A stretch of DNA of 64,000 bases, taken from contig OZ024743.1 in assembly GCA_964016885.1 (NCBI GenBank), positions 332,878,001-332,942,000 of the forward strand. The letters are read 5' to 3'. The position numbers and the translations under genes were made by a program. Below, piece after piece: positions 553 to 31,800 of this stretch; positions within the stretch are counted from its first letter, which is position 1, and each line of letters begins with the position of its first letter. A model generated the notes under the pieces. That model was given only the letters and a program-made list of their open reading frames with translations, searched no databases and was not told where the DNA came from. The DNA comes from Eledone cirrhosa. Lineage: Eukaryota.

Positions 553-1133
553 CATCATCATCATCATCATCATCGTTTAACATCCTTGTTCCATGCTTGC
601 ATGGGTTTGGACGGGAGTTTTCCCACTTGAGGCAAGAGTGGTTGTCTTGCTCGCATAGGACTGTCTGGCGGGTTTTCTACAGTTGGATGCCCTTCCTAAC
701 ACCAACCACATTTACAGTGTGGGGCTGGGAGGTTTTTACCGTGTTGCCTACACGGCCACATTACAGCGTGGACTGTCTGGCAGGTTTTCTACAGCTGGAT
801 GCCCTTCCTAACACCAACCACATTTACAGTGTGGGACTGGGACGTTTTTACCGTGTTGCCTACACGGTCACATTACAGCGTGGACTGTGTGTTTTTTTTT
901 CGTGACACCTACACGATCTCATTTGTTTCGGCCTGGATTTTGTGGCACCAACATAACTTTACATTGAAAGGGGCGGTGTGGATGGGGTGGGGGTGGTGGG
1001 ACAGGGGTGTATTTTGTTAGAGATGCCTACTGACTGTAGTAGGTTTTACTTTGTATTTAGGTAACGCGGGTCTTCTCTGTTACTGAGTACCGCCAAAGGT
1101 CTCGGTCCAGTGACATTGTCTTGGAGAGGTGTA
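553..1133 (-). mobile_element. 5'-truncated RTE family B copy (3'UTR plus last ~70 nt of ORF) nested in the SINE head
   Basis: Near-identical to 49018-49490, with a (CAT)n tail at 553-573 and an internal ~110-bp tandem duplication (~659-770 and ~771-885). Confidence 0.85.
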
Positions 1134-1410
1134 GGCCAATTCTCTAACCACTAAGCCATGTGCCCTATTATTATATATAGCCTGTCATAGGCATTTTAAA
1201 CCTGGAAGAGCCCATTTCTCTTCAGGTCAGAACACAATTGAGTCTTTCCAGAAGAATAAAAAAAAAAGAACAAAAGACAAGTTGATCACGGTGAGATTAG
1301 AACTCAGAGCATAGAGAGCTGGAATGAAACTACAATGTGTTCTAACTGATGTTCTAATGACTCTGCCAATTGCCACTTTTCTTTTAAATAGCCAATTAAA
1401 TTAAAATGAA

Positions 1411-1800
1411 GGCACATGGCTTAGTGGTTAGAGCATTGGGCTTGCAATCGAAAGGTTGTGAGTTCAATTCTCGGACCGGGTGATGTGTTGTTTCCTTGAG
1501 CAAGACACTTTATTTCACATTGCTCCAGTTTACTCATCTGTAGAAAGGAGATGATAGGACTGGGGTCCCTATCATTCCACTGTAAAGTGGACATGTAGGC
1601 GCCACGGAAAAAAAGCACCCAGCACTCACTTTAAATGAGGTTGGTGTTAGGAAGGGCATGCAGCTGTAGAAATCAAGCCAGAATCAGTTCCTGAATGGGC
1701 AAGACAAGGTCAGCCGACTGGACACTGCTCACAACAGGACAACCTGTCTAATCCATGCTAGCATGGAAGAACGGACGTAAAACAGTGATGATGATGATGA
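1411..1800 (+). mobile_element. tRNA-derived CORE-type SINE with RTE-like 3' tail
   Basis: A box TGGCTTAGTGG, B box GAGTTCAATTCT, CORE-like 'ccttgagcaagacactt...cagtttactcatctgtagaaa', and tail 'catgctagcatggaagaacggacgtaaa' followed by (TGA)n. Confidence 0.85.
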
Positions 1801-2170
1801 AGGAAGGAAACAATGATTTTTTTTTTTTGCTTTAATATGTCTCAAGGCAAGAGGCTTAGGCTAGAGTTTATATTGGTTTCATCAGGTGTTGAGCAACCAT
1901 AAATACAAGACTCTGCACTGGCTGGGAGAACAGTTCATCACAAGATTAAAGAAAACCCACCCTCCTGGCTGCTGCTGTTGGTACTCATTTTTTCAGTTAA
2001 GTGGATCAGAATAAAGTAAAATGAAATGCCTTACTCAAAGAGACAAGGTGCTGTCTGGTCTGGGGATCAAACTCACAAAGTTATGATCAAAAGCCCAACA
2101 CCTTCACCACAGGGCAACATACTGTCAATGATAAATGTAAATATATTTTGAATAAAATTTTATGACTCAC

Positions 2171-2277
2171 TTGCAAAAGCCACTTTGATCACATGTCTTG
2201 AAATTTTCTCTAGTAACAGCTACCACACTGTATATTAGACATATACAATATAGAACAACATGCCAATGTTGGGCCAT
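2171..2277 (-). CDS. GANAB: First coding exon of neutral alpha-glucosidase AB (glucosidase II alpha subunit, GH31)
   Basis: Manual translation gives MAQHWHVVLYCICLIYSVVAVTRENFKTCDQSGFC(K): a signal peptide followed by the conserved 'V.R.NFKTC..S.FCKR' N-terminus of glucosidase II alpha. Acceptor 'tttttcag' ends at 2285; donor GTGAGT at 2170-2165 (phase 2). Confidence 0.85.
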
Positions 2278-2419
2278 TGTTGACCTGAAAAATAAATTCA
2301 ATGATTATTAATCTGAAATATTGTTGATTTATAACATTAAAAATAGTTCAATTCATTTATAATACACACAATTTCAATTTTCCAGGGTTAACAAAATCTT
2401 ATCCTATCCAATCCAGGGC

Positions 2420-2656
2420 CTTCTCACTCCTGCTGGAGGAACCTCCCCACCCCCTGGCTGACCACCACACTCACCGTGCTTAGTCAATTGCGGGTTGGTG
2501 AGGCTATTTAACCCATAGTTGGGGTGGATGGCCACTGACTGTTCATCTGTCCTTTTAATCGCTTGTTTTTTGTGCTGCTGGGGGAGCCAGTTTAGTCACC
2601 AACCACACAACCATGTACTGGGTTACATGGTACCAGTAGCAGGCAGAAGCCTGACT
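2420..2656 (-). mobile_element. Degenerate RTE-type 5' module (same type as 59987-60085)
   Basis: Reverse complement 'gtcagg...ctactggtaccatgtaacccagtac...ggtgactaaactggc' aligns with 59988-60070. Confidence 0.55.
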
Positions 2657-4919
2657 TAACAAAATAGATAAGGCTTCATCAAATCAACTGTTTTATGTTT
2701 ATAGCTTAGATGTCAAGGACCCTTTTTTTTATTGCAGGAGCTCTGAGACTGGTGACTAGTGAAGAAAAAAGAGAAGGAAACACCACCCGATAGGTTGAGG
2801 TGGTAGGAAGCAGTTTATGAAAATACTGAGTTACCCTCAGATTGGAGTCCTTGTTCTAATGTTTGCAACAGAGAGGACTCTGTGAAAGCCACCTGAAAGC
2901 CAAATGGTGATGTTACACCAAACAACAGATTAAGTCTACCTTCCAAAATAACACTTATACAAAACAGTGTCTAGTTAGGAGGAACTTGATGTAAAGACAG
3001 TCATTAATATAATTACCAATTTTGGAATAAATTGGAATTTTAAAAAGATGTCCCACTTCCACAACCACTTGCAAATGCAATAAAGATTTCTTACATACAT
3101 TGTCATAAATTAGTAAGGAAAGGGATATCAATTGACTTGACAAATACTAGTACAAATTTTATCACCACTATCCTTGAGGGAGCAAAAGCTCTGGCATATC
3201 CAGAAGAATTTGAACTAAGGATTCTTCAGATGTGTCAAGAGAACAGCAACCTCTCTAGTGTTGGTGACATGATAAAACACACTTAGTACATTCTGTGAAA
3301 TGGCTAGAGACAGGAAGTGCATCCAGCCATAAAAAAAACTTGCCAAATAAAGAGTAAAGAGGACTCTTCAGTTGTGTCAAAGACATGACAACCTCCCAAG
3401 TACAGGTGCCATGATGAAATGCATCCACTGCACTCTACAGTGAGGGATCATATGTAAATGAGATTCAGGCACAGGCTTGTTTGAAAGGTCAGTAACTCTG
3501 ATTAAGTAATGTCAGTGACAACCTATCCAACCCATGCTAACAGGGAAAATGGACATGAAATGATGAAGATGAAAACTAAATATCACAAGACAAATAATCA
3601 AGTGACCTTCTATTGTTGCCACTTCACCACCAATACAAAATAAAATCAATATTACAATGAAATGTTTTATATGACACACTGCTGCTGCTTTTGAATATCA
3701 AATTTGTTGGAATGGATGCAAAGGTAAGAGTTGGAGGTTGCCAATACTATTGTCATTGATTTAAAATTATAATTTCTAATTGTTCCCAATGTTTTTAAAA
3801 GGATTTTTAATTACATTCATGCATCAAGTTGCTGCTACTTCATTCTGTCAAACCCTTCTTTTTTTTCTTTATTGGTGACAAGTTGTAGTGATGTGTGTGT
3901 CCCCGTGAAACATATACATATACACCCAGTCCAAACACAAAGGAACCAAACTCCCACTGTCACTGCCTCCGTTTCTCTTGCTCTATCCATCTCTCATTAT
4001 TATTATTTGATTGTGTCAGACTGAGCAGACCAATGGCTCACAGTCAGCTATATGATTAGGCTGAACCTCAGGGAATTATTGTTTCACACAGCTCCAATTA
4101 CACTGCACACTTAGTAATGGTAACAAGACACTTGCCATTGGTACCATTATAACGAAACCTCAATTAATAAAATCCTTTGTCAAGTTACAACTTTTCTTAC
4201 GGATTCTATATTTCTCTCTGAATTATTTTTTTTTTCTTGGGCCAACTCCATGCAGCTGAACCTCACAAAGGAGATGATCCAGGTCTGAGAATATTGGCAA
4301 TATTTCATGGTATGAGGAACGTGCCTTCCCATGCAAGTGGAATAAAGCAGCACAGAGATGATAGCTAACCTATCTACCTCCCTCCACCCTGAACCTGAAA
4401 AAACAGAGAGGTGGTACAACACTCGTGTACCACTTCCCACCCGCCAGTATACTCCTGATTCCCTACCACCATGCCCCTGATTCCTTTCTCCACCATAAAC
4501 TTGAAGAAGCAGATAGATGGAATAACTTTCAGCTTCTCACCTGTTAATATACTCCTGACTTTTTCACCCAACCCATGCTAGCATGGAAAGCTTGGATGAA
4601 CCTTGATTGATTCACTTTCCCTGCTGAACCTGTTGCACCCCACAAACACTTGCCCAACTAAGGAAAGCCTGGCACACCTAAAAATGACAAACACCACCAA
4701 CCCAACCACTAGCCCCAAGAAGTATATAGTTGCTCCCTTATAGGTCACCAAGAGAAGCCAGGTACAGCCCACAATATATCAGACAGCATCCACTTGCTTT
4801 GAGACCACTACTATGACTCGCCCACTTCCAGCAGTGCAATACCTGTACCCCAACCTCAACCCATACCAATTCCTCCCCAGCATGACCATGTACACTGAAC
4901 ACCCTAGTGTTGTAATAAA

Positions 4920-5150
4920 GTAGTCCTGGTGCCACAACAAAAGCACCCAGTCCACCCTGTAATGTGGTAATGCTGGTGCCATGACAAAAAAGCACCCAAT
5001 CCTCCCTGTAAAGTGGTAGTGCTGGTGCCATGATGAACAGCACCCAGTCCACCCTGTAAGATGGTAGTGCCAGAGTCGTGATAAAATGCTCCCCAGTACA
5101 CGCTGTAGAGTGGTTGGCTTTAGGAAGGATACCAAGCCATAGAAACCAAG
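4920..5150 (+). repeat. SINE-body fragment with ~55-bp internal tandem expansion
   Basis: Repeated unit 'ggtgccatgacaaaaaagcacccagtccaccctgtaaagtggtagtgct', about 4 copies, then an 'aggaaggatacc' motif. Confidence 0.6.
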
Positions 5151-5189
5151 TCAAAACAAAATGTACAACTGTCTAACACATACAGTGCA

Positions 5190-5815
5190 CTCTAAAATTT
5201 CACCAAAAATACATAGAATACTTGTTTACAACATCCTACAAGACATGCGACTGAAAGGAAGAGACAATGGAGACTTAGGGCCTTGAGGAAAAATGGAAAT
5301 TTCAGTATGTTTCCAGCAAGACAGAAAGTGACATGGCAATGGAATGATAAAAAAAATGAAAAAAAAAGAGGGAGAGAGCAATACCAAATAGAAGAAAGGC
5401 TAGGCAGATGCAGAAAAGAAGTTTGCTTATGTTCTAAAATGAGAGGATCAGAGGTGTGAAGTGTTTTAGATTGTGATGGAGTAAATTGAGATTTCAGGGA
5501 GAAATGTGTTCAAATGATAGAAAATTTGCTGCCAGGAAGAAAAAGACTGCTGAATGAAGAGAATAAACAGGAGTGAGGGACTACCCCATGTATATGTAAC
5601 AGAAGGACCAACCATAAAAGTTAACAGCAGTGTGATAGACAATGTGATTAAGGATATGAAGGTATAGAAGGCAGCTGGACCATCTGGTATAGTTACCAGG
5701 ATGCTAAAAACAAGTGGCTTGGTAAATGGCAAGCTAGTCAGATGCACAATCAGCCAAGTAGTAGAGGGTGGTGTCACATCAAATGACAGATACAGCAGTA
5801 TCATAATATAATGTG
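5190..5815 (+). pseudogene. Highly decayed RTE ORF fragment (EN-RT linker region)
   Basis: 'aaggcagctggaccatctggtatagtt' and 'ggtggtgtcacatcaaatgac' correspond to RTE-A 30317-30440 (KAAGPSGIV...GGVIPKD); many stops. Confidence 0.6.
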
Positions 5816-6159
5816 CTCCTAGATACATTATATCTGAAAGAAATAATGACATAATCACAGCTGGAATTCATGTGATTATGTCTACTTCATCAGATAGGAA
5901 GAGAGACTAATCAATAAGTAATAAAATATGTATATATAGAGTCAAAAAACTGAAATATGATAGGACTGGTACCTCTATCATAAACTCTATGTCCTGTTCT
6001 GCATGAAACGGCATTAGTAAGACATTTCTTGTAAAGTACAAAACAATTTAAACTAATACTGAAAATATTTACAACAATCTGTCAACCAGTAAAGATACTA
6101 TAAACATTTGAATTAACCAACTGACTTTTAGGTATTTTCTACTAAATCATTACGGGATG

Positions 6160-6805
6160 TTGAGAATTAAAGCACCCAAGAAACTTTCTATAAAATATAA
6201 CCTTGTAGATCAGGTGTGAGTTGTATCAATATGACAGGACTGGGGTTCTCATTAAAACATCCAAGAAACTTCCTTGAAATACCTCATAGGAGACTAGCTA
6301 AACCTATATAGCATAACAGGACTAGGCCCCTATCATTAAAACATCCAAGAAACAACCCCATAGGAGACCAGCTAAACCTACATAAGTGTGAGCAATATAA
6401 CAGGACCCCTATCATTAAAACACCCAAGACACTCCCTATGATACATAACCTCATAGGAGACCAGTTAAACCTATGTAGGTGTGAACTATAACAACATAAG
6501 AGCGGAGCTTCTAATCATTAAAACTACAAAAAAAATCCTTATGATATATAACCTCATAGGAGACCAGTTAACCCTTTAGAATTTAAACCAGCCATATCCG
6601 GCCAGAATTCTCTCACCTCTTTCTGTTCAAACTGGCTGTAACCGGCCACTCATACTGACATTAAGATACAGTTCTCAAAATAAATAACATCATCATAGAT
6701 TCCATATTATGTAAGATAATTATGTGAGATAAAGCTTTTACCATGAAAATATAATAGTAATGCAAATGCTAAAGGGTTAAACCTATGTATGTGTGAACTG
6801 TAACT
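6160..6805 (+). repeat. Degenerate minisatellite, ~85-100-bp unit, about 5 copies
   Basis: Recurrent 'attaaaacatccaagaaac...cctcataggagaccagttaaacctat' at ~6167, 6251, 6335, 6414 and 6517. Confidence 0.7.
6572..6776. mobile_element. piggyBac-type MITE with TTAA target-site duplication
   Basis: TTAA|CCCTTTAGAATTT ... AAATGCTAAAGGG|TTAA. The empty site 'gagaccagttaaacctatgta' is visible in the preceding minisatellite unit. Confidence 0.85.
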
Positions 6806-7633
6806 AGGATGGAGAATTAATTTGAAGTTGATAAAGCAAGAAATTATTTTTTTGTCTCACTGCTTTAAGTAGAAATCCTGCCTGAGTTAATTTTACTGCT
6901 CATTCCTCCTCCTACATTAGCAATTAAACAAGGAATAATCAGTAATTTACTGGGGTTCATTCAGTCAACTAACTATACCCTTCCTTCTACTACAAAAGTT
7001 GGCATGACATGTTATCAAAAGAAATCAATAATCAGGATAAATTTAGAATTAGACATCAATGGTGCACATATTACAGTTCAATAAATCAAATGGATCAATA
7101 CTGTAATTATTGTGTTATCATAATAATACATTATAGAATATAACATAGGTAGAATGTCACACATTTATAGATGAGGAGGGCATGGACTGATAATGGAAAC
7201 AGGCATTTCTCAAGGATATTTATCAGAACAGCTGACATGAGTCATAAACCACAATTGTCATATCCCCCTGACAACCTTTTCACCCCTTATCTCCTTCACC
7301 TCACCCTCATCAAATTCCACCACCATATGTATTTCAACAACTCAGAAGATATGACCATGAAAATGACATCAAACAAACAGATCATAAAACAACATCAAAC
7401 AACCAACAGCTCAACAAACACATCAAACAGCAGCAAACAGATCATCAAAGTAAAATATTAAAACTAATCACAGTGTAAATAAAGGATCATAGATGACTGT
7501 GAGGTGGTTAAAGAGACAATCTAGAAACAGTCAAATTTGTTTTACAGAAAAGTTAAGTATAAAAAAATAAATCTGTAAAATATCAACTATTTTAAAAATG
7601 AAATTATGGAGTTAGACAATTTCAATAGTTTAA

Positions 7634-12567: not shown

Positions 12568-20584
<8,017 letters not shown>

Positions 20585-21168
20585 ACTCTTTTACTCTTTT
20601 ACCTGTTTCAGTCATCCGGCTGAGGCCATGCTGGGGCACCGCCCTTGTTGCTACACATTTTATCTCCAGCCTGTATAGGTTGGCCACTGGTGTAGGAGGG
20701 AGTTTGTTGCTGATGCCCTTAGGTTTCCCTCGTGTCTTGCTGTGGGCTCATCCGGGATCCGGGATAACAAGGTGTCGAGATGTTTCTTAAAGACATCCAC
20801 CTCCACGTCATGCAAGTCTCGCAGATGCCTCGGCAGCCTGTTGAAGAGTTGAGGGCCCTTGAATCCCAGGCTATTGCAATACCTGCTCCTTATTCTAGAT
20901 GTGGAAGACGGGACCTTTGGCACCACACAGTGACGTCCTGTTCGACGGTTGGTCCAGCTCCCAATGCCAAAGTTTGGTGCTAGTCCCTCCAGGATTTTAC
21001 ACATGTAGATCACTGCGTATCTCTCCCGTCTTCGCTCCAAGGAGTAGAGGTTCAGTTCCTTCAGCCTCTCCCAGTAGCTTGTCTCCCTCATCTTGGCAAT
21101 CCTCTTGGTGTAGCTTCGCTGGATTGCCTCAAGCTCCGTGGTTAGTTTGACACTATGGGGTGACCACA
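20585..21168 (-). mobile_element. 5'-truncated CR1-group LINE (second family): ORF2 C-terminus and tail
   Basis: WSPHSVKLTTELEAIQRSYTKRI...YWERLKELNLYSLERRRERY...SATNSLL, homologous to the C-terminus of the ORF at 24857-27877; tail (GTAAAAGA)n. Confidence 0.88.
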
Positions 21169-21197
21169 TGTATATATATATGGGTGACCATATGTAT

Positions 21198-21601
21198 ATC
21201 ATCATCATCATCATCATCAACGTTTAACGTCCGTGTTCCACGCTTGCATGGGTTTGGACGGGGGTAGTCCCACTTGAGGCAAGAGTGATTGTCTTGCTCG
21301 CATAGGACTGTCTGGCAGGTTTTCTACAGTTGGATGCCCTTCCTAACACCAACCACATTTACAGTGTGGGTCTGGGAGGTTTTTACCGTGTTGCCTACAC
21401 GGCCACATTACAGCGTGGACTGTGTGTTTTTTTGTCGTGACACCTACACGATCTCATTTGTTTCGGCCTCGATGGCGCGGCACCAACATAACTTTACATA
21501 GAACGGGGTGGTGTGGATGGGGTGGGGGTGGTGGTGGTGGGACGGGGTGTATTTTGTTAGAGATGCCTACTGGCTGGAGTAGGTTTTACTATATATTTAG
21601 G
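21198..21601 (-). mobile_element. RTE-B 3'UTR-only insertion
   Basis: Near-identical to 49018-49421; ends at the ORF stop region. Confidence 0.88.
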
Positions 21602-21959
21602 TATATATATATATATATATATCTATACATGTATATATATATATCTATATATATATCTATATATGTATATATATCTATATATCTATATATCTATATATGT
21701 ATATATATATATCTATATATGTATATATATATATCTATATATGTATATATATATATCTATATATGTATATATATATATCTATATATGTATATATATATAT
21801 CTATATATGTATATATATATATATATATATCTATATATATATATATCTATATATGTATATATATATATATGTATATATATATATCTATATATGTATATAT
21901 ATATATCTATATATGTATATATATATATCTATATATGTATATATATATATCTATATATG

Positions 21960-22076: not shown

Positions 22077-22219
22077 CTATATCTATATATGTATATGTCT
22101 ATATATGTATATATATATATCTATATATGTATATAAGGACGTGTTTTTACTTCTCTCCCCGAGTAAGCAGCAAGTCACACAGCCACAAAACAAAACCACA
22201 AGACAAAACCAAACAAACA

Positions 22220-22372
22220 AAAATTGACCGGTTAATACATTTTCATACATCTATATTATTATATATTTGAAAATTGACCGGTTAATACATTTTTCATACA
22301 TCTATATTATTATATATTTGAAAATTGACCGGTTAATACATTTTTCATACATCTATATTATTATATATTTGA
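22220..22372 (+). repeat. Three ~51-bp tandem repeats in the LINE 5'UTR
   Basis: 'aaaattgaccggttaatacatttttcatacatctatattattatatatttg' at 22220, 22270 and 22321. Confidence 0.9.
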
Positions 22373-22640
22373 AACCACGTGTTTTCGAACTTGTGAGTAC
22401 ATTTTCCTTTAACTACAAATTATTATTATATACTTTCGTCTTTTCATTAATTTCAAATAACCAGAATATACATATATATATATTGGAATAAATGCTCTGA
22501 AATAGCGATATATATGTGAGTATAGACATAGAATATTCGAAAATATTCTGTATGTTTATAATAAACATTTTGAAGACCTAATCGCTATAGAATAGAATAC
22601 GTCACGTATTACAATTAGATTCTCGACAAAAGCAAGGGAA

Positions 22641-22683
22641 GTAATCTACGCGTTTCATTCTTGTTAGAATTCATCAGGACCAC
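22641..22683 (-). ncRNA. Minimal type I hammerhead ribozyme (left arm)
   Basis: Exact reverse complement of 23165-23207. Confidence 0.8.
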
Positions 22684-23164
22684 ATATCCAGTGCTTTTAT
22701 CGAGAATGACACAGCTAGAGACTTATAGAATACTTAGCTGTGTACTGGAACTGGTTTGAAAGAGCGGTTGCCGGTCCGGCAGAAATTAGAAATTGGAATA
22801 AATGCTCTGAAATAGCGATATATATGTGAGTATAGACATAGAATATTCGAAAATATTCTGTATGTTTATAATAAACATTTTGAAGACCTAATCGCTATAG
22901 AATAGAATTTGTCGAGAATCTAATTGTAATACGTGACGTATTCTATTCTATAGCGATTAGGTCTTCAAAATGTTTATTATAAACATACAGAATATTTTCG
23001 AATATTCTATGTCTATACTCACATATATATCGCTATTTCAGAGCATTTATTCCAATTTCTAATTTCTGCCGGACCGGCAACCGCTCTTTCAAACCAGTTC
23101 CAGTACACAGCTAAGTATTCTATAAGTCTCTAGCTGTGTCATTCTCGATAAAAGCACTGGATAT

Positions 23165-23207
23165 GTGGTCCTGATGAATTCTAACAAGAATGAAACGCGT
23201 AGATTAC
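23165..23207 (+). ncRNA. Minimal type I hammerhead ribozyme (right arm); predicted cleavage after 23201
   Basis: gtggtc-CTGATGA-attct-aaca-agaat-GAAAC-gc-GTA-gattac. Stem I is 6 bp (2 GU), stem II 5 bp, stem III the palindrome ACGCGT (dimeric type). Confidence 0.82.
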
Positions 23208-23705
23208 TTCCCTTGCTTTTGTCGAGAATCTAATTGTAATACGTGACGTATTCTATTCTATAGCGATTAGGTCTTCAAAATGTTTATTATAAACATACAG
23301 AATATTTTCGAATATTCTATGTCTATACTCACATATATATATATATATATACTCATATTTATATATATACGCTTCTCACTCACACACAAGAAAAACAAAA
23401 AACAAAAATAAATTTAAAAAAAAAATATATATATTGAAATACTTAACTAAAACACACACACACGAACTTGTGAGTACATTTTCCTTTAACTACAAATTAT
23501 TATTATATACTTTCGTCTTTTCATTAACTTAATTAATTTCAAATAACCAGAATATACATATATATATATACTCATATTTATATATATACGCTTCTCACTC
23601 ACACACAAGAAAAACAAAAAACAAAAATAAATCAAAAATAAATTAAAAAAAAAATATATATATATTGAAATACTTAACTAAAACACACACACACTCAAAA
23701 CTAGA

Positions 23706-24869
23706 ATGGCTAACCAGCAAAAATCCAAACAGAACTGGTCTGATAATGAAATCAACATTCTAATAAACACATGGCATTGCCTTTCCCAAACAGAAGATAT
23801 AGATGCTTCATCTCTGAACGACATTGCTAAACGTACAGTTCAATTTTTGAAAACTCGATCTGAACAACAGATTCAAAATAAATTAAAGCAAATCGAAATT
23901 GCTTTTAAATTAATCAATAAACATTTGGATAAACTACGGTGTGTTTTCTCTTCGAATGCTGTCCAGCAGCAGCAACAACAACAACAGCAGCTACAACAGC
24001 AACAACAACAACAACAGCAGCTACAACAGCAACAACAACAACATCAACAACAGCTACAACAACAACATCAACAACAGCAACAACAACAGTGTGAACCACT
24101 CCTTGATTCATCAACAATGGCCGATCTACTAAATGAAACTATTGACCCCCCAGTAGCCTCTGTCTCACAGCATGAAACGCCACATCCTTTCTCTGGCCCA
24201 GCAGTCCAATCATCACCACTGCCAACATCTCTGCCTACTACTACTACTACTACTACAACATTTTTGTCTACTGCTATGTCAAGGAATTTACCTTCTAATA
24301 CCAGAACAAGAACTCTCCCTCCCACAGTCCACAAAGGTCGTCAAATCCTACCCAAACCATCATCTACACCTCTCACAACACCCACACCCATATACCCACC
24401 CACTCGAAACCCCATCATTTGCCGCTACTCTCTACGCTATAGAATATGTACGGATAGTGGCTGCAAATTCACCCATTTACCTAGGACAAAACGATCTATC
24501 CCCACAAACAGCCACCACCATAATACATACTCTAATTTAACACCAACACAACCACCAATAACTCAAACAAGGAATCCACAAATCTGCCGTTTTTCCCTGC
24601 GAGACAGATTGTGTTTAGACCGGGATTGTCCCTTTACCCATCTCCCGGGGACCCGTCGGATAAATGAAAATAAAAGCAAAAACAAAAACCATAACCTACA
24701 TAAAAATAACCACTACCACAGTCACCAACAGTCTTCTAAACAGGAAACTTCTTCCTCTTTTTTAGCCATAATGAATCTGGCAAAAGAACTGGAAAAAAAC
24801 ATTCGAGCTATCACCCAGCACCACCCTCCACTATCACCCCACTGCACAAACTCCCATTGCTGCCATTAA
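23706..24869 (+). CDS. LINE ORF1: Myb/SANT-like N-terminus, polyQ, two CCCH-type zinc fingers
   Basis: NWSDNEINILINTW...RSEQQIQNKLK; CRYSLRYRICTDSGCKFTH and CRFSLRDRLCLDRDCPFTH (C-x8-C-x4-C-x3-H). Confidence 0.85.
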   Translation: MANQQKSKQNWSDNEINILINTWHCLSQTEDIDASSLNDIAKRTVQFLKTRSEQQIQNKLKQIEIAFKLINKHLDKLRCVFSSNAVQQQQQQQQQLQQQQQQQQQLQQQQQQHQQQLQQQHQQQQQQQCEPLLDSSTMADLLNETIDPPVASVSQHETPHPFSGPAVQSSPLPTSLPTTTTTTTTFLSTAMSRNLPSNTRTRTLPPTVHKGRQILPKPSSTPLTTPTPIYPPTRNPIICRYSLRYRICTDSGCKFTHLPRTKRSIPTNSHHHNTYSNLTPTQPPITQTRNPQICRFSLRDRLCLDRDCPFTHLPGTRRINENKSKNKNHNLHKNNHYHSHQQSSKQETSSSFLAIMNLAKELEKNIRAITQHHPPLSPHCTNSHCCH

Positions 24870-27800
24870 CAAACAAACAAATTAACAACACACCAAAACA
24901 ATTAAAACCATCCACTCTCGCCTCTACATTTTTGCTTAACGCCCAAGGCATCAGCCCTTCCACCAATACTCAAAAATGGAAGATCAAATTCCTGGAGGAC
25001 TGGATTGATGTCCATCCAAACCACATCCCTTTCTTCGTCCTCACTGAAACCCATCTCAGTAACCTCCACTTGGAAGCCGAGGTGAAAGTGAAAAATTTCA
25101 AAGCCATCCGTGCTGATCGCGCTGGCAGAAGAAAGGGCGGAACTGCCATTTATGTCCATAATTCTTTCTCAACAGAGGCTATGAACATATTCACTAATGG
25201 ATACTGTGAGGCAGTCACTGTATTCAGTCAAACCAACAACCTATTAGTAGTTGGGCTCTATAGGCCACCCCAAACGCCTGTACCATGCTTCAAGGAATGC
25301 CTCAACAGCATAAAGTGTTTCATCCAAGAGTGTCACCCTGACAACATCTTAATGATGGGGGACTTCAACCTCCCCGGAGTTGACTGGTCCACAAACACCC
25401 TGCCACCAGGTTCTTCTGCCTCAACCTCTGACAGGGAAGCTGTGGAATCGCTTCTTGACTTCATGGATGATTTCTTCCTATCCCAACTAGTGCTCGAACC
25501 AACGAGGTGCCACAAAAACGTCCTAGACTTAATTTTCAGCAATCACACTGACAATATCCACAATATTGCAGTGGAGAAAACTCTACTCTCTGATCATGAC
25601 ATGGTTCTCTGTGATCTGAGATTCCACCGTCCAATATACAAACCCAATGTCATTTCTCCTGTCCATCCGTTTGACGCTATGGATTTCCACAATGCAAACT
25701 GGGAAGCGATCAGTCATGATCTTGCACATGTCGACTGGTCCTTCACGCACACTCATACACCCACTAACATCAAAAAGTCCTGGCAGACATTTGTGGACAC
25801 TGTTACAAACATATGTGCTAAACACACCCCATTAAGAACTATAAACAAATCTAAGAGCAGAATCCCTAGAAATAGAAAAACGCTCATCAGAAAAATTAAG
25901 AGAACGAACAAAAAAATCAACAATCTGAAATACTGTCAGCAGCAACACATCAACTTGACTGCCATTTCATCACTAGAGATTAAAAAACATAACCTCCAAA
26001 ACAACATAATGTCCCTCATCAACAATCAGAGAAGAGCTGAAGAGGCCTGGGCCATTGAGAAGATCAAACTTAATCCCAAAGTGTTCTTTTCATTTGCAAA
26101 AAAACACAAAATCACTGGCTCTACTGTTGGCCCTCTAATTGATGAAAATGGCACTCTTCAAGACAATGCTAAAACCATGGGTGAGATACTGCAGAAACAA
26201 TACTGCTCTGTTTTCAGCAATCCTGATATGGCCGATCTGGGCTGTATCGGCGATGTTACTCCCCATTACACCTTATCGGACATAACGTTTGGCGCCCCTG
26301 ATGTCTTGGCGGCAATAAAGGAAATCAAGCATAATTCAGCAGTAGGTCCCGATAGGTTCCCTGCTTGTGTCTTGAAGGCGTGTCAACACCAACTTGCTTC
26401 TCCTCTTGCCAATCTGTGGCGGAACTCACTGGATGCTGGATATGTGCCAGAAAACCTTCTATCCCAGTCTGTTGTCCCAGTTTTCAAAAAGGGAAACAAA
26501 TCCCTTGCCGTGAATTACCGTCCAATCTCACTCACCTCTCATATCATTAAGGTATTTGAGCGAGTGGTGAGATCGCGAATGACCCACTTCCTTGAGAGTA
26601 ACAATATGCTGAACTCCAACCAGCATGGATTCCGTAATGGAAGGGATTGCCTGACGCAACTACTGCATCACTTTGATGACATTTTGAGAGCCTTGGGAGA
26701 GGGTTCCAACACTGATGTTATCTACCTTGATTTCAGCAAGGCCTTTGACAGGGTTGATCATAACATTCTACTGAGAAAGCTGTCCAATATTGGTGTCACT
26801 GGAAAGCTGCTGCAGTGGATCAAGAGCTTCCTGTCAAACAGAACCCAACATGTTGTAGTTGAGGGAGTCAAATCAAGCCCAGCCAAAGTCAGTAGTGGAG
26901 TCCCACAAGGCACTGTGTTGGGCCCACTTCTCTTCATCATCTATATTAATGACATCACTGACATCATCAAACACAGCAACATTAAAATTTTCGCTGATGA
27001 TTCCAAGCTCCAAAAGGTCATCAATGGCGTGGATGACCGGATAAGCCTTCAGTCAGACCTACTGGCTGTTACCCAATGGGCAGAAAAGAACAACATGTTA
27101 CTGAACGAAGACAAATTCGAACTGATCCACTTTGGAAAAGAGGATGCTCTGAAACTCCCGTACTCCCTTCCCTCCGGGGAAACTCTCGTGGCATCTAACA
27201 ACATCAGAGACTTGGGAGTAACCGTGGACAGCAACATAAGCTGGACCACGCATATAAGCAGCAAAGTTGACATGGCCCGCAGAATGTGTTCCTGGATCCT
27301 CAGAACCTTCCAGTCGAGAGATTCCCGCACCATTATCCTTCTCTTCTCTACTTTCGCCCGACCACACCTTGAATACTGTTGTCCACTGTGGTCTCCCCAC
27401 ACGAAACAAAGTATCATGAAACTTGAAGCTCCTCAAAGGGCAATCACGAAAAAGATAGATGGCATGTCAGACCTTGATTACTGGGGTCGATTGGAAAACC
27501 TGAAACTTTACTCACTCCAACGTCGCCGTGAGCGTTATATTATCTGCATGATGTGGAAAATGTTCCATCATCACTGCCCAAATGATGTTGGCATCGCCTT
27601 CAAGATACACCCAAGGCTTGGGCCCCGTGCTATCCGTCCCATTCAAAAATCTAAATCGCAACTCATAACAACAATACGGCACAATTATTTCACCTCAATC
27701 GGCCCTGCTCTCTTCAACATCACACCAGGACACGTCAAAACAGAAACTGACCACACAAAATTCAAGAAGTCTTTGGACAAATTCCTCCAAGTAATCCCGG

Positions 27801-27877
27801 ACAAACCACCCACACCCGGATATGTCTCCGCAAACAGTAATTCTCTTCTCGAATGGGCCATGGTGCCCAAATCCTGA
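24758..27877 (+). CDS. LINE ORF2: APE endonuclease plus reverse transcriptase (CR1 group), intact, with no in-frame ATG before the EN domain
   Basis: LLNAQG, LTETHL, MGDFNLP, SDHD, NYRPISLTS, DFSKAFDRV, GVPQGTVLGP, FADD, ARPHLEYCCPLWSPH; frame open from 24740. Confidence 0.93.
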   Translation, partial: FFSHNESGKRTGKKHSSYHPAPPSTITPLHKLPLLPLTNKQINNTPKQLKPSTLASTFLLNAQGISPSTNTQKWKIKFLEDWIDVHPNHIPFFVLTETHLSNLHLEAEVKVKNFKAIRADRAGRRKGGTAIYVHNSFSTEAMNIFTNGYCEAVTVFSQTNNLLVVGLYRPPQTPVPCFKECLNSIKCFIQECHPDNILMMGDFNLPGVDWSTNTLPPGSSASTSDREAVESLLDFMDDFFLSQLVLEPTRCHKNVLDLIFSNHTDNIHNIAVEKTLLSDHDMVLCDLRFHRPIYKPNVISPVHPFDAMDFHNANWEAISHDLAHVDWSFTHTHTPTNIKKSWQTFVDTVTNICAKHTPLRTINKSKSRIPRNRKTLIRKIKRTNKKINNLKYCQQQHINLTAISSLEIKKHNLQNNIMSLINNQRRAEEAWAIEKIKLNPKVFFSFAKKHKITGSTVGPLIDENGTLQDNAKTMGEILQKQYCSVFSNPDMADLGCIGDVTPHYTLSDITFGAPDVLAAIKEIKHNSAVGPDRFPACVLKACQHQLASPLANLWRNSLDAGYVPENLLSQSVVPVFKKGNKSLAVNYRPISLTSHIIKVFERVVRSRMTHFLESNNMLNSNQHGFRNGRDCLTQLLHHFDDILRALGEGSNTDVIYLDFSKAFDRVDHNILLRKLSNIGVTGKLLQWIKSFLSNRTQHVVVEGVKSSPAKVSSGVPQGTVLGPLLFIIYINDITDIIKHSNIKIFADDSKLQKVINGVDDRISLQSDLLAVTQWAEKNNMLLNEDKFELIHFGKEDALKLPYSLPSGETLVASNNIRDLGVTVDSNISWTTHISSKVDMARRMCSWILRTFQSRDSRTIILLFSTFARPHLEYCCPLWSPHTKQSIMKLEAPQRAITKKIDGMSDLDYWGRLENLKLYSLQRRRERYIICMMWKMFHHHCPNDVGIAFKIHPRLGPRAIRPIQKSKSQLITTIRHNYFTSIGPALFNITPGHVKTETDHTKFKKSLDKFLQVIPDKPPTPGYVSANSNSLLEWAMVPKS

Positions 27878-27963
27878 ATTGAAAGACTTCGCCAGGTGGT
27901 GCTATTAAGTTAGACATGGCCTGGGCCAATACTGGCCAAAACATTTCAAAGTTATTCAAAGTT

Positions 27964-28880: not shown

Positions 28881-31800
28881 ATGAAGACGTCGCATCTCAG
28901 AGTTGCAACACTTAATGTTGGCACTCTCAGAGGTAGATCGGCTGAAATAGCGGAGATGCTGGTGAGAAGGCAGGTGTGTGCTGCGTGCAAGAGGTGAGAT
29001 GGAGAGGTGCCTCTGCGAGACTAGTCGTAGGCAAGCGTCTTAGCTATAAGCTATTCTGGGTAGGTAAGGATGATGGGTTAGGGGGAGTAGGCATTTTCCT
29101 GGCTGAGAAATGGATCAATAAGACAATAGAGGTAGTTCGAGTTAGTAATCGAATAATTAAGCTTAGATTAGTTGTAGGTAGGAGACTACTGACAATCATC
29201 TCGGTCTATGCTCCCCAAGCAGGCCTAGGCAAAGATGAGAAAGACTGCTTTTATGAGCAACTTTTGCAAACAACCACAATGACAGAGGACGGAGACATCG
29301 TTATGCTAGCAGGAGACTTCAATGGTCATGTTGGACAGCTCCAGGATGGTTACACTGGGGTACATGGTGGGCATGGTTACGGTTCAAGAAATGAAGAAGG
29401 AGTGAGACTTCTTGAATTTTGTGATGCAAGTACATTGACTATTTGCAACACAAACTTCCAGAAACCTGCCAATCACCTAATAACCTACAAATCTGGTGAG
29501 CACATAAGCCAGATTGACTTCCTGCTAGTTAGGCAGCGGGACAGGCAGATAGTGTCTAATACCAAGGCATACCCTGGGGAAGAATGTACCCCACAGCATA
29601 GGTTAGTTGTTAGTGATATCTCAGTAAGCAAGAGATGGAATGAGACATATAGGAAGGTGTGGAGAAGAAAGGTCTGGAAGCTAAAAGACCTTTCACTAAA
29701 ATTCAAATTTAGGAAAGCCCTTCAAGATGTATATGACGAAAAAGAAGACGATTTAGAGACGTATGACATAGATAATAACTGGAAGTTCTTACGTGACAAC
29801 TTGCTGAAGGCTACTGATGAAACTTGTGGCTGGAGCAGAGCCCCAACCAGACAGAGAGTGACCTGGTGGTGGAACAGCAGTGTAGATAAGGCTATTAGAG
29901 ACAAAAGACTAGCATGGAAGGCTTGGAATAAGGGTGGGAGTAGGGAAGAATATACAGCCACTAAGAGAGAAGCTAGACGTCAGGTGTACTTAGCACGCAG
30001 GGAGGCAGAGAGTAGGAGGTTTGCCAATGTTCTGCGACGGGAAGATCAGAGGTGTGCGGTGTTCCACATTGCAAGGCAGTGTGTCAATGCAAATCAGGAT
30101 GTTGTTGGTGATAAATGTGTCCGGGATGATGCCGGTGTACTTAGTGTCACGAATGACCAGAAAAAGGAGGCCTGGAAATGCCATTATGAGAGACTGATGA
30201 ATGTGGAGAACGAATGGGAGAGAGAGAAATTACCCTTGGTAGATCCGACAGAGGGACCAGCTATTGAGATTGACGAATATAGGGTCCAAGAGGCGATTAG
30301 GGAAATGAAAAATGGTAAGGCGGCCGGACCATCGGGAATAGTTGCTGAGATGCTGAAGGCATCAGGGGACGTAGGCACTAAACTGGTTGCACGCATAATC
30401 AATCAGGCTATATATGGTGGTGTCATACCCAAAGACTGGTGCAGCAGTATTCTCATAAATTGCTACAAAGGTAAAGGGGATGCTTTGGAGAGGAGCAATT
30501 ATAGGGGTATAAAACTGATAGATCAGGTTATGAAAGTGGCAGAAAGGATTTTAGCACAACTAATTAGAGAAAGGGTCAAACTAGATGAGATGCAGTTTGG
30601 TTTTGTGCCTGGGAAGAGTACAACAGATGCCCTCTTCTTGGTGAGACAAATGCAAGAGAGGTTCTTAGAGAAGAATAAGCCACTATACTTGGCCTTTGTT
30701 GACCTAGAGAAGGCCTTTGATAGGGTACCCCGATCTGTCATCTGGTGGTCCCTAAGGAAGCTGGGTGTTGAGGAATGGCTTGTAAGGACAGTGCAAACTT
30801 TGTACAGAGGTACTCTCAGTAAAGTCAGGGTAGGAATGGAGTTTAGTGAGGAATTCCAGATACAAGTAGGAGTACATCAGGGTTAGGTCCTCAGCCCGCT
30901 CTTGTTCATTATAGTCCTCCAAGCCATAACAGAGGAGTTTAAGACTGGCTGTCCATGGGAACTTCTCTATGCTGACGATCTGGCTCTTATGGCAGAATCA
31001 GTAGAGGAGCTAGAGAATAAATTCCGGCTATGGAAACAGCAGTTGGAAGCAAGAGGACTGAGAGTAAATCTAGCTAAGACAAAAGTGTTGATGAGTAGAA
31101 AAGAGGACAAAACCCTGATTCCGTCAGGGAAATGGCCATGTTCGATATGCAGAAAAGGAACTGGCATAAATTCTATAAAATGCACACAATGTAGGTCCTG
31201 GGTACACAAGAGATGTAGCGGGATAGCAGGCAAACTAACAGGTAGGGAGAAATATGTATGCAGTAGATGTACAGGGAAATTAGACAGTAGAAGTCGCACT
31301 GATAGACACATTTTTCAAATGCGAGAGGGCGCTATAGAAGTGGTGGATAGCTTCCGGTACCTAGGAGATCAGATTAGCATGGGAGGAGGGTGTTCCGAGG
31401 CCATAGTATCTAGAATAAGGACGGGTTGGAAGAAGTTTAGGGAGCTGCTTCCTCTGTTGACGAAGAAGGGTTTCTCCCTGCGTACGAAAGGCCGGTTGTA
31501 TGATGCCTGTGTGAGGAGCGCGATGCTGCATGGTAGTGAGACATGGGCAGCTACCGCAGAAGATATGCGACGGCTGGAGAGAAATGAGGCAAGCATGCTC
31601 CGTTGGATGTGCAGTGTAAATGTGCGTGAACGACCCAGCATAAATGTGTTGAGAGAGAAACTGTGTCTGAGAGGGATAGAATGTAGTGTACGGGAGAGGA
31701 GACTGAGGTGGTATGGACATGTGATGCGCATGGAGAATGACCGATGGGTGAAGAAGTGCCAGGAAATGCCAGTTGAAGGAAGACGTAGTAGAGGTAGACC

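Follow-up and report, generated by a model that had tools for sequence, protein, structure and literature searches.

In what we consider the probable reading, the inverted repeat at positions 22482-23340 of the window (the whole 64,000-nucleotide stretch of DNA that was analysed) is one member of a young, non-coding, two-armed family residing in (TA)n runs, and it was made in trans by the protein of a Penelope-type element (PLE) from one monomeric sense RNA that is probably a circle. The left, tail-bearing arm (22482-22908, minus strand) comprises 427 nt or 1.38 units and runs from phase 49 at its inner end to phase 165 at its outer end. The right, non-tail arm (22908-23340, plus strand) comprises 433 nt or 1.40 units and runs from phase 17 to phase 139. 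Phases are counted from the base that follows the predicted hammerhead cut 23201^23202, which is phase 1. The preliminary description had reported a right arm of 1.40 units, a 310-nt period in both arms, one hammerhead per arm in divergent orientation, and pairing of 22508-22908 with 22940-23340 around a 31-nt spacer, and all of these were reproduced (0 mismatches in 401 nt against the reverse complement; spacer 22909-22939; cores at 23171 on the plus strand and 22677 on the minus strand). It was also right that the left arm exceeds one unit, although its start and size were corrected from 22483 and 1.37 units to the values given above. The recent origin that had been proposed for this insertion is supported.

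A PLE-type tail of 26 nt (22482-22507, minus strand, phases 140-165) is present at the left outer end only, and the right arm ends in an AT run that belongs to the unit. At the inner junction (22908-22939), base 22908 is compatible with both arms and constitutes a 1-nt microhomology; the next 31 nt open the right arm and are unpaired. In the genome, this junction sequence is found a single time. Since the left arm extends 26 nt beyond the end of the right arm and provides just 148 nt from the phase at which the right arm starts, neither arm can be read off the other at this locus. No source copy of the exact window unit was found: the variant of its hammerhead region occurs at two other loci, both of which differ at phases 127 and 211 and one of which reaches an assembly gap. 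Matches of miRNA families on the inverted repeat were rejected, as they reflect the hairpin shape only.

The unit is 310 nt long with a GC content of about 34% (base counts), is non-coding and without LTR structure, and has ends joined straight to (TA)n. The absence of a long ORF noted earlier holds, the longest ATG-started frame around the predicted circle having 30 codons. The type I hammerhead with an extended stem I (23141-23229, plus strand; core 23171-23201) has a 6-nt palindrome as helix III, which is predicted to be able to pair between two unit copies, and its predicted cut is 23201^23202; the second copy (22619-22707, minus strand) has its predicted cut after 22647 on the minus strand. 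At the Rfam gathering thresholds nothing was found in the 64-kb window, and the HH9 model matches both hammerheads weakly (20.5 bits, E 0.054, with a gathering score of 52). The unit agrees with the canonical architecture of animal type I hammerheads as presented in PMC4209133. When we folded the monomer as a circle, stems I and II formed with pair probabilities of 0.89-1.0, except for the two outermost pairs of stem I (0.79 and 0.66), and the predicted fold had a z value of -3.75, with 0 of 100 shuffles being equally stable. The position 23201/23202, which had been put forward as the junction of a circular RNA, is supported as the junction of the predicted circle. Across 36 haplotypes the hammerhead core shows no fixed change, and the free position N7 varies. 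In an alignment of the unit, its older relatives and a second local repeat, which comprised six sequences, four of them close kin, two-sided changes were observed at 6 of 10 pairs. As regards viroid-like features, the hammerhead core occurs on one polarity only, and the predicted fold is branched, not rod-like. Arrays of the family reach more than 22 units and contain at least two consecutive hammerheads. The window insertion has just one per arm, so that it is not itself an 'active' array by the criterion given in a 2026 preprint (bioRxiv 10.64898/2026.07.22.740005). We suggest that the family is a new one among the non-LTR retrozymes, a class that is itself known, with cleavage and circle formation predicted from the models.

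The insertion is less singular than the preliminary description took it to be: it is one of about a thousand. The tail end at phase 165 joined to (AT)n was found 1,006 times genome-wide, while the reversed-pattern control gave 0 matches, so other copies of the unit do exist. A search by unit similarity returned 348 candidate places, and 413 matches lay within the 40 that were scored. Our sample consisted of 119 genome stretches and the window: 20 stretches were chosen by unit similarity, 98 cover the first 100 tail matches on contig C1, and 1 was chosen by variant. BLAST matches shorter than 60 nt or more than 8% divergent were removed before arm pairing. The first 100 C1 tail matches gave 93 two-armed and 4 one-armed insertions and 3 unresolved ones, in which a gap was present or the array was longer than the stretch; two-armed insertions thus amount to 93 of the 97 resolvable tail-bearing ones. 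Among 110 divergent pairs, 107 had one end at about phase 165 and the other at 126-139, and the other 3 leave the stretch. One tail and one non-tail end were therefore present in 107 of 107 resolved pairs, and no tail/tail pair was found among the 110; because most sampled insertions were picked by their tail, a pair of two non-tail ends would have been visible only in 18 of the 110. The set chosen by similarity, which was not selected by ends, showed one tail and one non-tail end in 17 of 17 resolved pairs. These 20 stretches and the window contained 17 pairs, one with a second arm of 17 nt, and 4 one-armed insertions, 2 of each end type. The tail measures 26-39 nt, depending on the assignment of the AT run, and 102 of 106 outer ends in the first 53 pairs abut an AT run. 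The pattern of the non-tail end gave 69 matches, some of them double, and detects the youngest subfamily only, so this number is not a census. Older relatives of the unit in L052 (2433-2883, 66-70% identical) and L049 (1777-2637, about 95%) share the two-armed, one-tailed structure, indicating that the mechanism is old in this lineage.

Comparison of the arms revealed that either can be the longer one, the non-tail arm in 50 and the tail arm in 57 of 107 pairs, and that one arm exceeds the other by more than one unit in 16 and 24 of the first 52 pairs for the two directions. Arm lengths correlate weakly (rho 0.24, p 0.012); the near-equal arms of the window locus are a chance outcome, and the two-armed layout is the family norm. 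Since a copy made by fold-back cannot outgrow its template, yet either arm can be longer, both arms come from a repeating template. When pairs with at least two units per arm were compared, the same haplotype was found in both arms in 66 of 69 (permutation mean 6.7, maximum 14), and the shared haplotypes include changes that a single insertion alone carries. Of the three discordant pairs, L198 has just one difference, beside a short repeat, which is probably an alignment effect, and was kept as discordant. The 36 haplotypes were distinguished in 114 array records with a within-arm variation of 0.05%; a complex three-part insertion, L121, contributes one pair and two of the 114 records (one haplotype). 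Two rare haplotypes were traced genome-wide and turned up only where their units follow one another directly, one with 26 units at 2 loci and the other with 77 units at 9 loci. Uniform arrays with 36 haplotypes, together with rare haplotypes confined to unit runs, require frequent monomer bottlenecks.

Inner ends showed no pile-up at the ribozyme cut (5 of 214 against 7.6 expected) and avoided no phase, and they were enriched in the inverted repeat of stem I (30 of 214 against 16.6 expected). For the inner end of the tail arm, we saw no concentration at the second priming site (11 of 107 against 10.7 expected). Neither run-off at the ribozyme cut nor a halt at the second primer in the manner of L1 was therefore seen. 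We analysed 53 junctions with ends taken from BLAST, of which 13 had inserted bases, and microhomology of at least 3 nt was present in 13 of the 40 junctions without inserted bases, where 6.5% is expected. In L190 (G000:C1:136718900-136726900, positions 600-7001), each arm has two units of one haplotype followed by an in-register switch, which shows that one unit can be the starting point of both cDNAs and that these can take a common path along the template. In L142 (976-4994), the tail arm consists of four A276 units and then two G276 units, and all units of the other arm have G276; the inner end of this tail arm is at phase 123, adjoining the second start site.

We propose the following course of insertion. 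The simplest model has one primer on each target strand and a single RNA that runs unbroken past the cut, with the cDNA ends annealing afterwards. An array would be transcribed, and hammerheads paired via the palindromic helix III would cut out 310-nt monomers, which a host ligase would close into circles. Within a (TA)n run, both strands would be cleaved by the PLE endonuclease, and each of the two target 3' ends would prime on the same RNA at AU-containing start sites, at phases 165 and 126-139. Each reverse transcriptase would pass the cut site and go on for a number of rounds that varies, and the two cDNAs would anneal at their 3' ends by a few matching bases and then be filled in. The outcome would be head-to-head arms of largely independent lengths and one haplotype. 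In this way, the copying of a 310-nt hammerhead unit beyond unit length, as first interpreted, is retained, while the accompanying fold-back or template jump onto the first cDNA is not.

Substitutions that are private and fixed over a whole array were A-to-G in 17 of 29 cases, compared with 13 of 129 single-unit changes (Fisher p 7e-8). There were 3 T-to-C and 1 C-to-T changes of the whole-array kind, and single-unit changes were strand-symmetric (13 A-to-G against 16 T-to-C). An older divergent copy, L049, was excluded from the substitution count, as its direction of change is ambiguous. Read on the hammerhead strand, the whole-array changes are mostly A-to-G, and these A-to-G changes recur at phases 20, 276 and 259 on 5, 5 and 3 backgrounds. 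This count presumes clonal backgrounds; with free long-range recombination, the origins would number about 4 for phase 276 and 3 for phase 20. All 7 of the A-to-G sites are in predicted stems, while 54 of 94 A positions are paired overall (p 0.02). ADAR prefers double-stranded RNA and disfavours a 5' G. Judging from the sequence pattern, where an A-to-G change is fixed throughout the units of both arms, it is likely to stem from A-to-I editing of the template, since editing of a folded monomer followed by repeated copying would give whole-array A-to-G changes at paired sites in one step. G20 may be ancestral in the oldest background, and G-U tolerance in stems could add to the bias. The window copy has both G20 and G276, at which most insertions have A. 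These candidate A-to-I marks are located in stem I on the plus strand, at 23221 (also 22911, mirrored at 22627) for phase 20 and at 23167 (mirrored at 22681) for phase 276.

The window insertion is located in a young LINE (22132-27963, plus strand) with a 5'UTR to 23705, an open ORF1 at 23706-24869 and an open AP-endonuclease/RT frame at 24740-27877. It is flanked by a left target run (AT)6 (22472-22483), of which the final 2 nt also fit the arm, and a right target run (AT)9 (23333-23350), of which up to 8 nt also fit the arm. When we examined 14 sister copies of the LINE, those spanning this position had (AT)8-10 without the insertion. Compared with the present flanks, an empty site of (AT)9 would correspond to a duplication of 2-12 bp. 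The preliminary description had thus placed the repeat correctly within the LINE 5'UTR, but the LINE takes no part beyond offering an (AT)n run: it is a bystander and target, not part of the element. ORF1 of this LINE gave no Pfam match and contains a polyglutamine tract and repeated Cys/His motifs, and its 5'UTR has 51-nt and about 220-nt repeats in variable number.

Autonomous PLEs are present in the same genome. There are 10,595 GIY-YIG candidates genome-wide, of which 150 were scored, and the 40 stretches drawn from these showed no PLE terminal repeat homologous to the unit. Open frames with RT and, at the C terminus, GIY-YIG, carrying a CxxxxCxxC motif, reach 938 codons and have the architecture that Craig et al. 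2021 (PMC8557442) give for Neptune and Nematis. In several PLE families, the terminus lies in (TA)n, downstream of a hammerhead-like motif whose helix III is palindromic, and where PLEs form inverted pairs, one end is long and the other short. A Neptune-type family represented in L083 and L090 has its ends 124 and 164 nt beyond the cut of its own hammerhead-like motif, which matches the 126-139 and 165 of the retrozyme, and has an adjoining inverted tail-less arm in 16 of 40 scored candidates. This family is young, with many 100%-identical ends, from which we infer that an autonomous PLE is active in the same genome. No PLE with sequence similarity to the unit was found among five families (z -2.2 to 2.3; L083/L090 z -0.3), and sequence matches to the unit near PLEs were rejected as other hammerhead repeats inserted nearby. 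The L083/L090 family is therefore a candidate partner on the basis of its geometry and co-activity. The Penelope-type link suggested earlier is supported by the one-sided tail, the inverted arm and the (TA)n target. As seen in the PLE 3' regions of L071, L083, L087 and L089, most of the autonomous PLE families have a hammerhead-like motif in which U3-A8 replaces C3-G8, again with a palindromic helix III, and tail lengths vary by family (about 28, 40 and 65 nt).

As the template, we consider a circle considerably more probable than a linear multimer, that is, an uncleaved multimeric transcript of an existing array that is read in parallel by both reverse transcriptases after the same two-strand priming by the PLE, with monomer bottlenecks being rare. 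Such a multimer is unlikely on balance, but it has several observations in its favour. The in-register two-unit switch in both L190 arms is explained directly by a mosaic multimer, whereas a circle needs a joint template switch, and single-unit A-to-G changes at hot sites in L220 and L226 fit a multimer and speak against editing of one shared monomer. The mosaic tail arm of L142 likewise counts against repeated copying of one edited monomer. Arrays of more than 22 units exist as potential sources, the rare haplotypes include long arrays able to template shorter siblings, and the account of the PLE protein PAc in PMC11167929 reports that hammerhead cleavage is not needed in vitro and unprocessed RNA is used. 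On the other hand, 36 haplotypes that are nearly all uniform over both arms require many monomer bottlenecks, and the editing-like changes are mostly whole-array while single-unit changes have no A-to-G excess, the opposite of what independently edited units would give. An improbable explanation is the fold-back, in which a cDNA, or an antisense RNA as in the self-priming model published in PMC3846280, primes on itself and the second arm copies the first. The haplotype common to both arms, the near-equal arms at the window locus and short templated inserts at some junctions would agree with it, but it is largely refuted by the arm lengths, with either arm capable of being more than one unit longer and neither contained in the other at the window locus. 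Moreover, each of the two outer ends is at a fixed site and adjoins target (TA)n, and it is the hammerhead strand, as opposed to the antisense strand, that shows the A-to-G bias.

The probability is smaller still that an AP-endonuclease LINE, either the host or a neighbouring family, mobilises the unit by L1-type twin priming, although the window holds many young LINEs that have open frames and lie beside (TA)n. In L1 twin priming, two target 3' ends prime on one RNA and the cDNAs are joined by microhomology, which likewise yields head-to-head inversions. Here, by comparison, neither start site varies, the sequences of the arms overlap, the first cDNA does not halt at the second primer, and the inversion is the rule rather than the minority. 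Furthermore, no poly(A) or LINE-like 3' end was seen at the insertions, the inner end of the tail arm is not concentrated at the second priming site, as described above, and the fixed tail of 26-39 nt matches PLEs of the same genome. Perfect inverted repeats can be read artefacts, but a chimeric read or assembly artefact at the window locus is hardly credible: the arms are asymmetric, the differing flanks continue the LINE 5'UTR on both sides, the ends are at the same two family-wide sites as in 106 other pairs, and each junction is distinct.

Animal retrozymes form circles (Cervera and de la Pena 2020, PMC7229834), and reverse transcription of a circular template, with which the two-primer model agrees, was proposed for them in the same paper; a PLE origin of retrozymes is argued by Li, Clavereau and Pollet 2026 (the above preprint), and the model is in line with this and with the PLE data obtained in vitro. 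The present family resembles the animal non-LTR retrozymes of both accounts in its tandem, low-GC, non-coding units (150-450 nt), each with a type I hammerhead, in a short palindromic helix III and a U-U mismatch at the base of stem II (here in older haplotypes), in the hammerhead formed in the predicted circle and in the co-occurrence with PLEs. It differs in that retrozymes are described as tandem repeats, the words 'inverted' and 'orientation' being absent from the main text of PMC7229834, and fixed two-site ends, two-armed insertions and editing marks were not seen in the main parts of those accounts. The circles are reported in the retrozyme papers, whereas here circle and cleavage are predicted. 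The adjoining inverted truncated copy with a 30-40 bp tail at one end is a PLE signature (PMC8557442, PMC3846280), and the insertions agree with Neptune- and Nematis-type PLEs as described there in having a head-to-head inverted 5'-truncated copy, a tail of 30-40 bp that is confined to one end, targets in (TA)n, junctions with microhomology and a hammerhead near the terminal repeat. Unlike those elements, the unit has no ORF and its arms are multi-unit arrays (up to 19 and more than 22 units), and its hammerhead has the canonical core while most local autonomous PLE families have a UUGANAA variant. The published PLE account, as given in the latter source, is self-priming on an antisense template, which the retrozyme arrays do not fit. 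In the green anole, a Poseidon PLE encodes the PAc protein, which cuts both strands, extends them and has two start sites bounding the tail (Frangieh et al. 2024, PMC11167929). PAc is alike in its AT-rich DNA, the cutting and extension of both strands, the two internal start sites and a predicted dimer. According to that account, its start sites in vitro are equal between strands and not homologous to the cut DNA, while in the present family the two sites are each used a single time per insertion and match the (TA)n primer over 1-8 nt.

In the literature searched, which consisted mainly of open main texts, we found no prior account of two-armed retrozyme insertions or editing marks. Within this scope, what is new is the family, the rule that an insertion combines one start of either kind with a single template haplotype, and the bias that resembles editing, while the retrozyme class and the PLE insertion signature are known. 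Craig et al. 2021 (PMC8557442) describe the origin of tandem and inverted PLE insertions with a one-sided tail as undefined, and Arkhipova et al. 2013 (PMC3846280) do not decide between models for it. Movement of retrozymes via PLE proteins acting on circles has hitherto been a proposal from co-occurrence and sequence kinship. Because the arms are countable arrays with haplotype markers, start sites, run lengths and the identity of the template can be read from about 1,000 young insertions. What emerges is a strict rule of one of each start site, one template haplotype and largely independent lengths, together with a named candidate partner, so that both the PLE tail origin and retrozyme movement become directly testable. 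If true, the copying of one RNA from both cut strands at once would explain the long-standing PLE puzzle, and the editing-like bias, if confirmed in RNA, would mean that RNA edits enter inherited DNA. We put forward tentatively, at slightly below an even chance, the broader reading that an A-to-I-edited circular ribozyme RNA is copied in repeated rounds by two PLE reverse transcriptases starting on opposite strands where a (TA)n run is cut, each at its own start site, with the two cDNAs then being joined, that this is the general origin of the PLE inverted repeat and one-sided tail, replacing antisense self-priming, and that the genome keeps a heritable editing record.

Several further observations were made in the sampled stretches. 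Long arrays in L133 (2007-7887) and L154 (1010-8001) have variants that recur every 7 units or at irregular intervals, which suggests either later amplification of a satellite-like kind or effects of the assembly. A distinct hammerhead repeat in L081 (7140-7900) has a period of 511, internal (AT)n runs and the same loop II sequence. A small two-armed element in (TA)n was observed in L083 (3130-3330) and L079 (5860-6020 and 6800-7010), with a truncated hammerhead-like core and 72% similarity to the unit over 80 nt. Words of the unit (window 22920-23230) were found in 20 public runs with 18 organism codes from 17 studies, at 46-85% of the sampled words, reflecting either close relatives or horizontal spread; none of the runs listed was an RNA data set, which says nothing for or against expression. 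Finally, the window itself contains near-identical LINE-bearing blocks, which are duplicated at 20575-21602 and 34115-35142 (100%) and at 28881-31964 and 36989-40076 (99.8%) and triplicated at 49013-50953, 51967-53908 and 54489-56409 (98-99.9%), representing either recent duplication or assembly redundancy, and an inverted fragment of the 3' end of the host LINE lies near 33600-33830.
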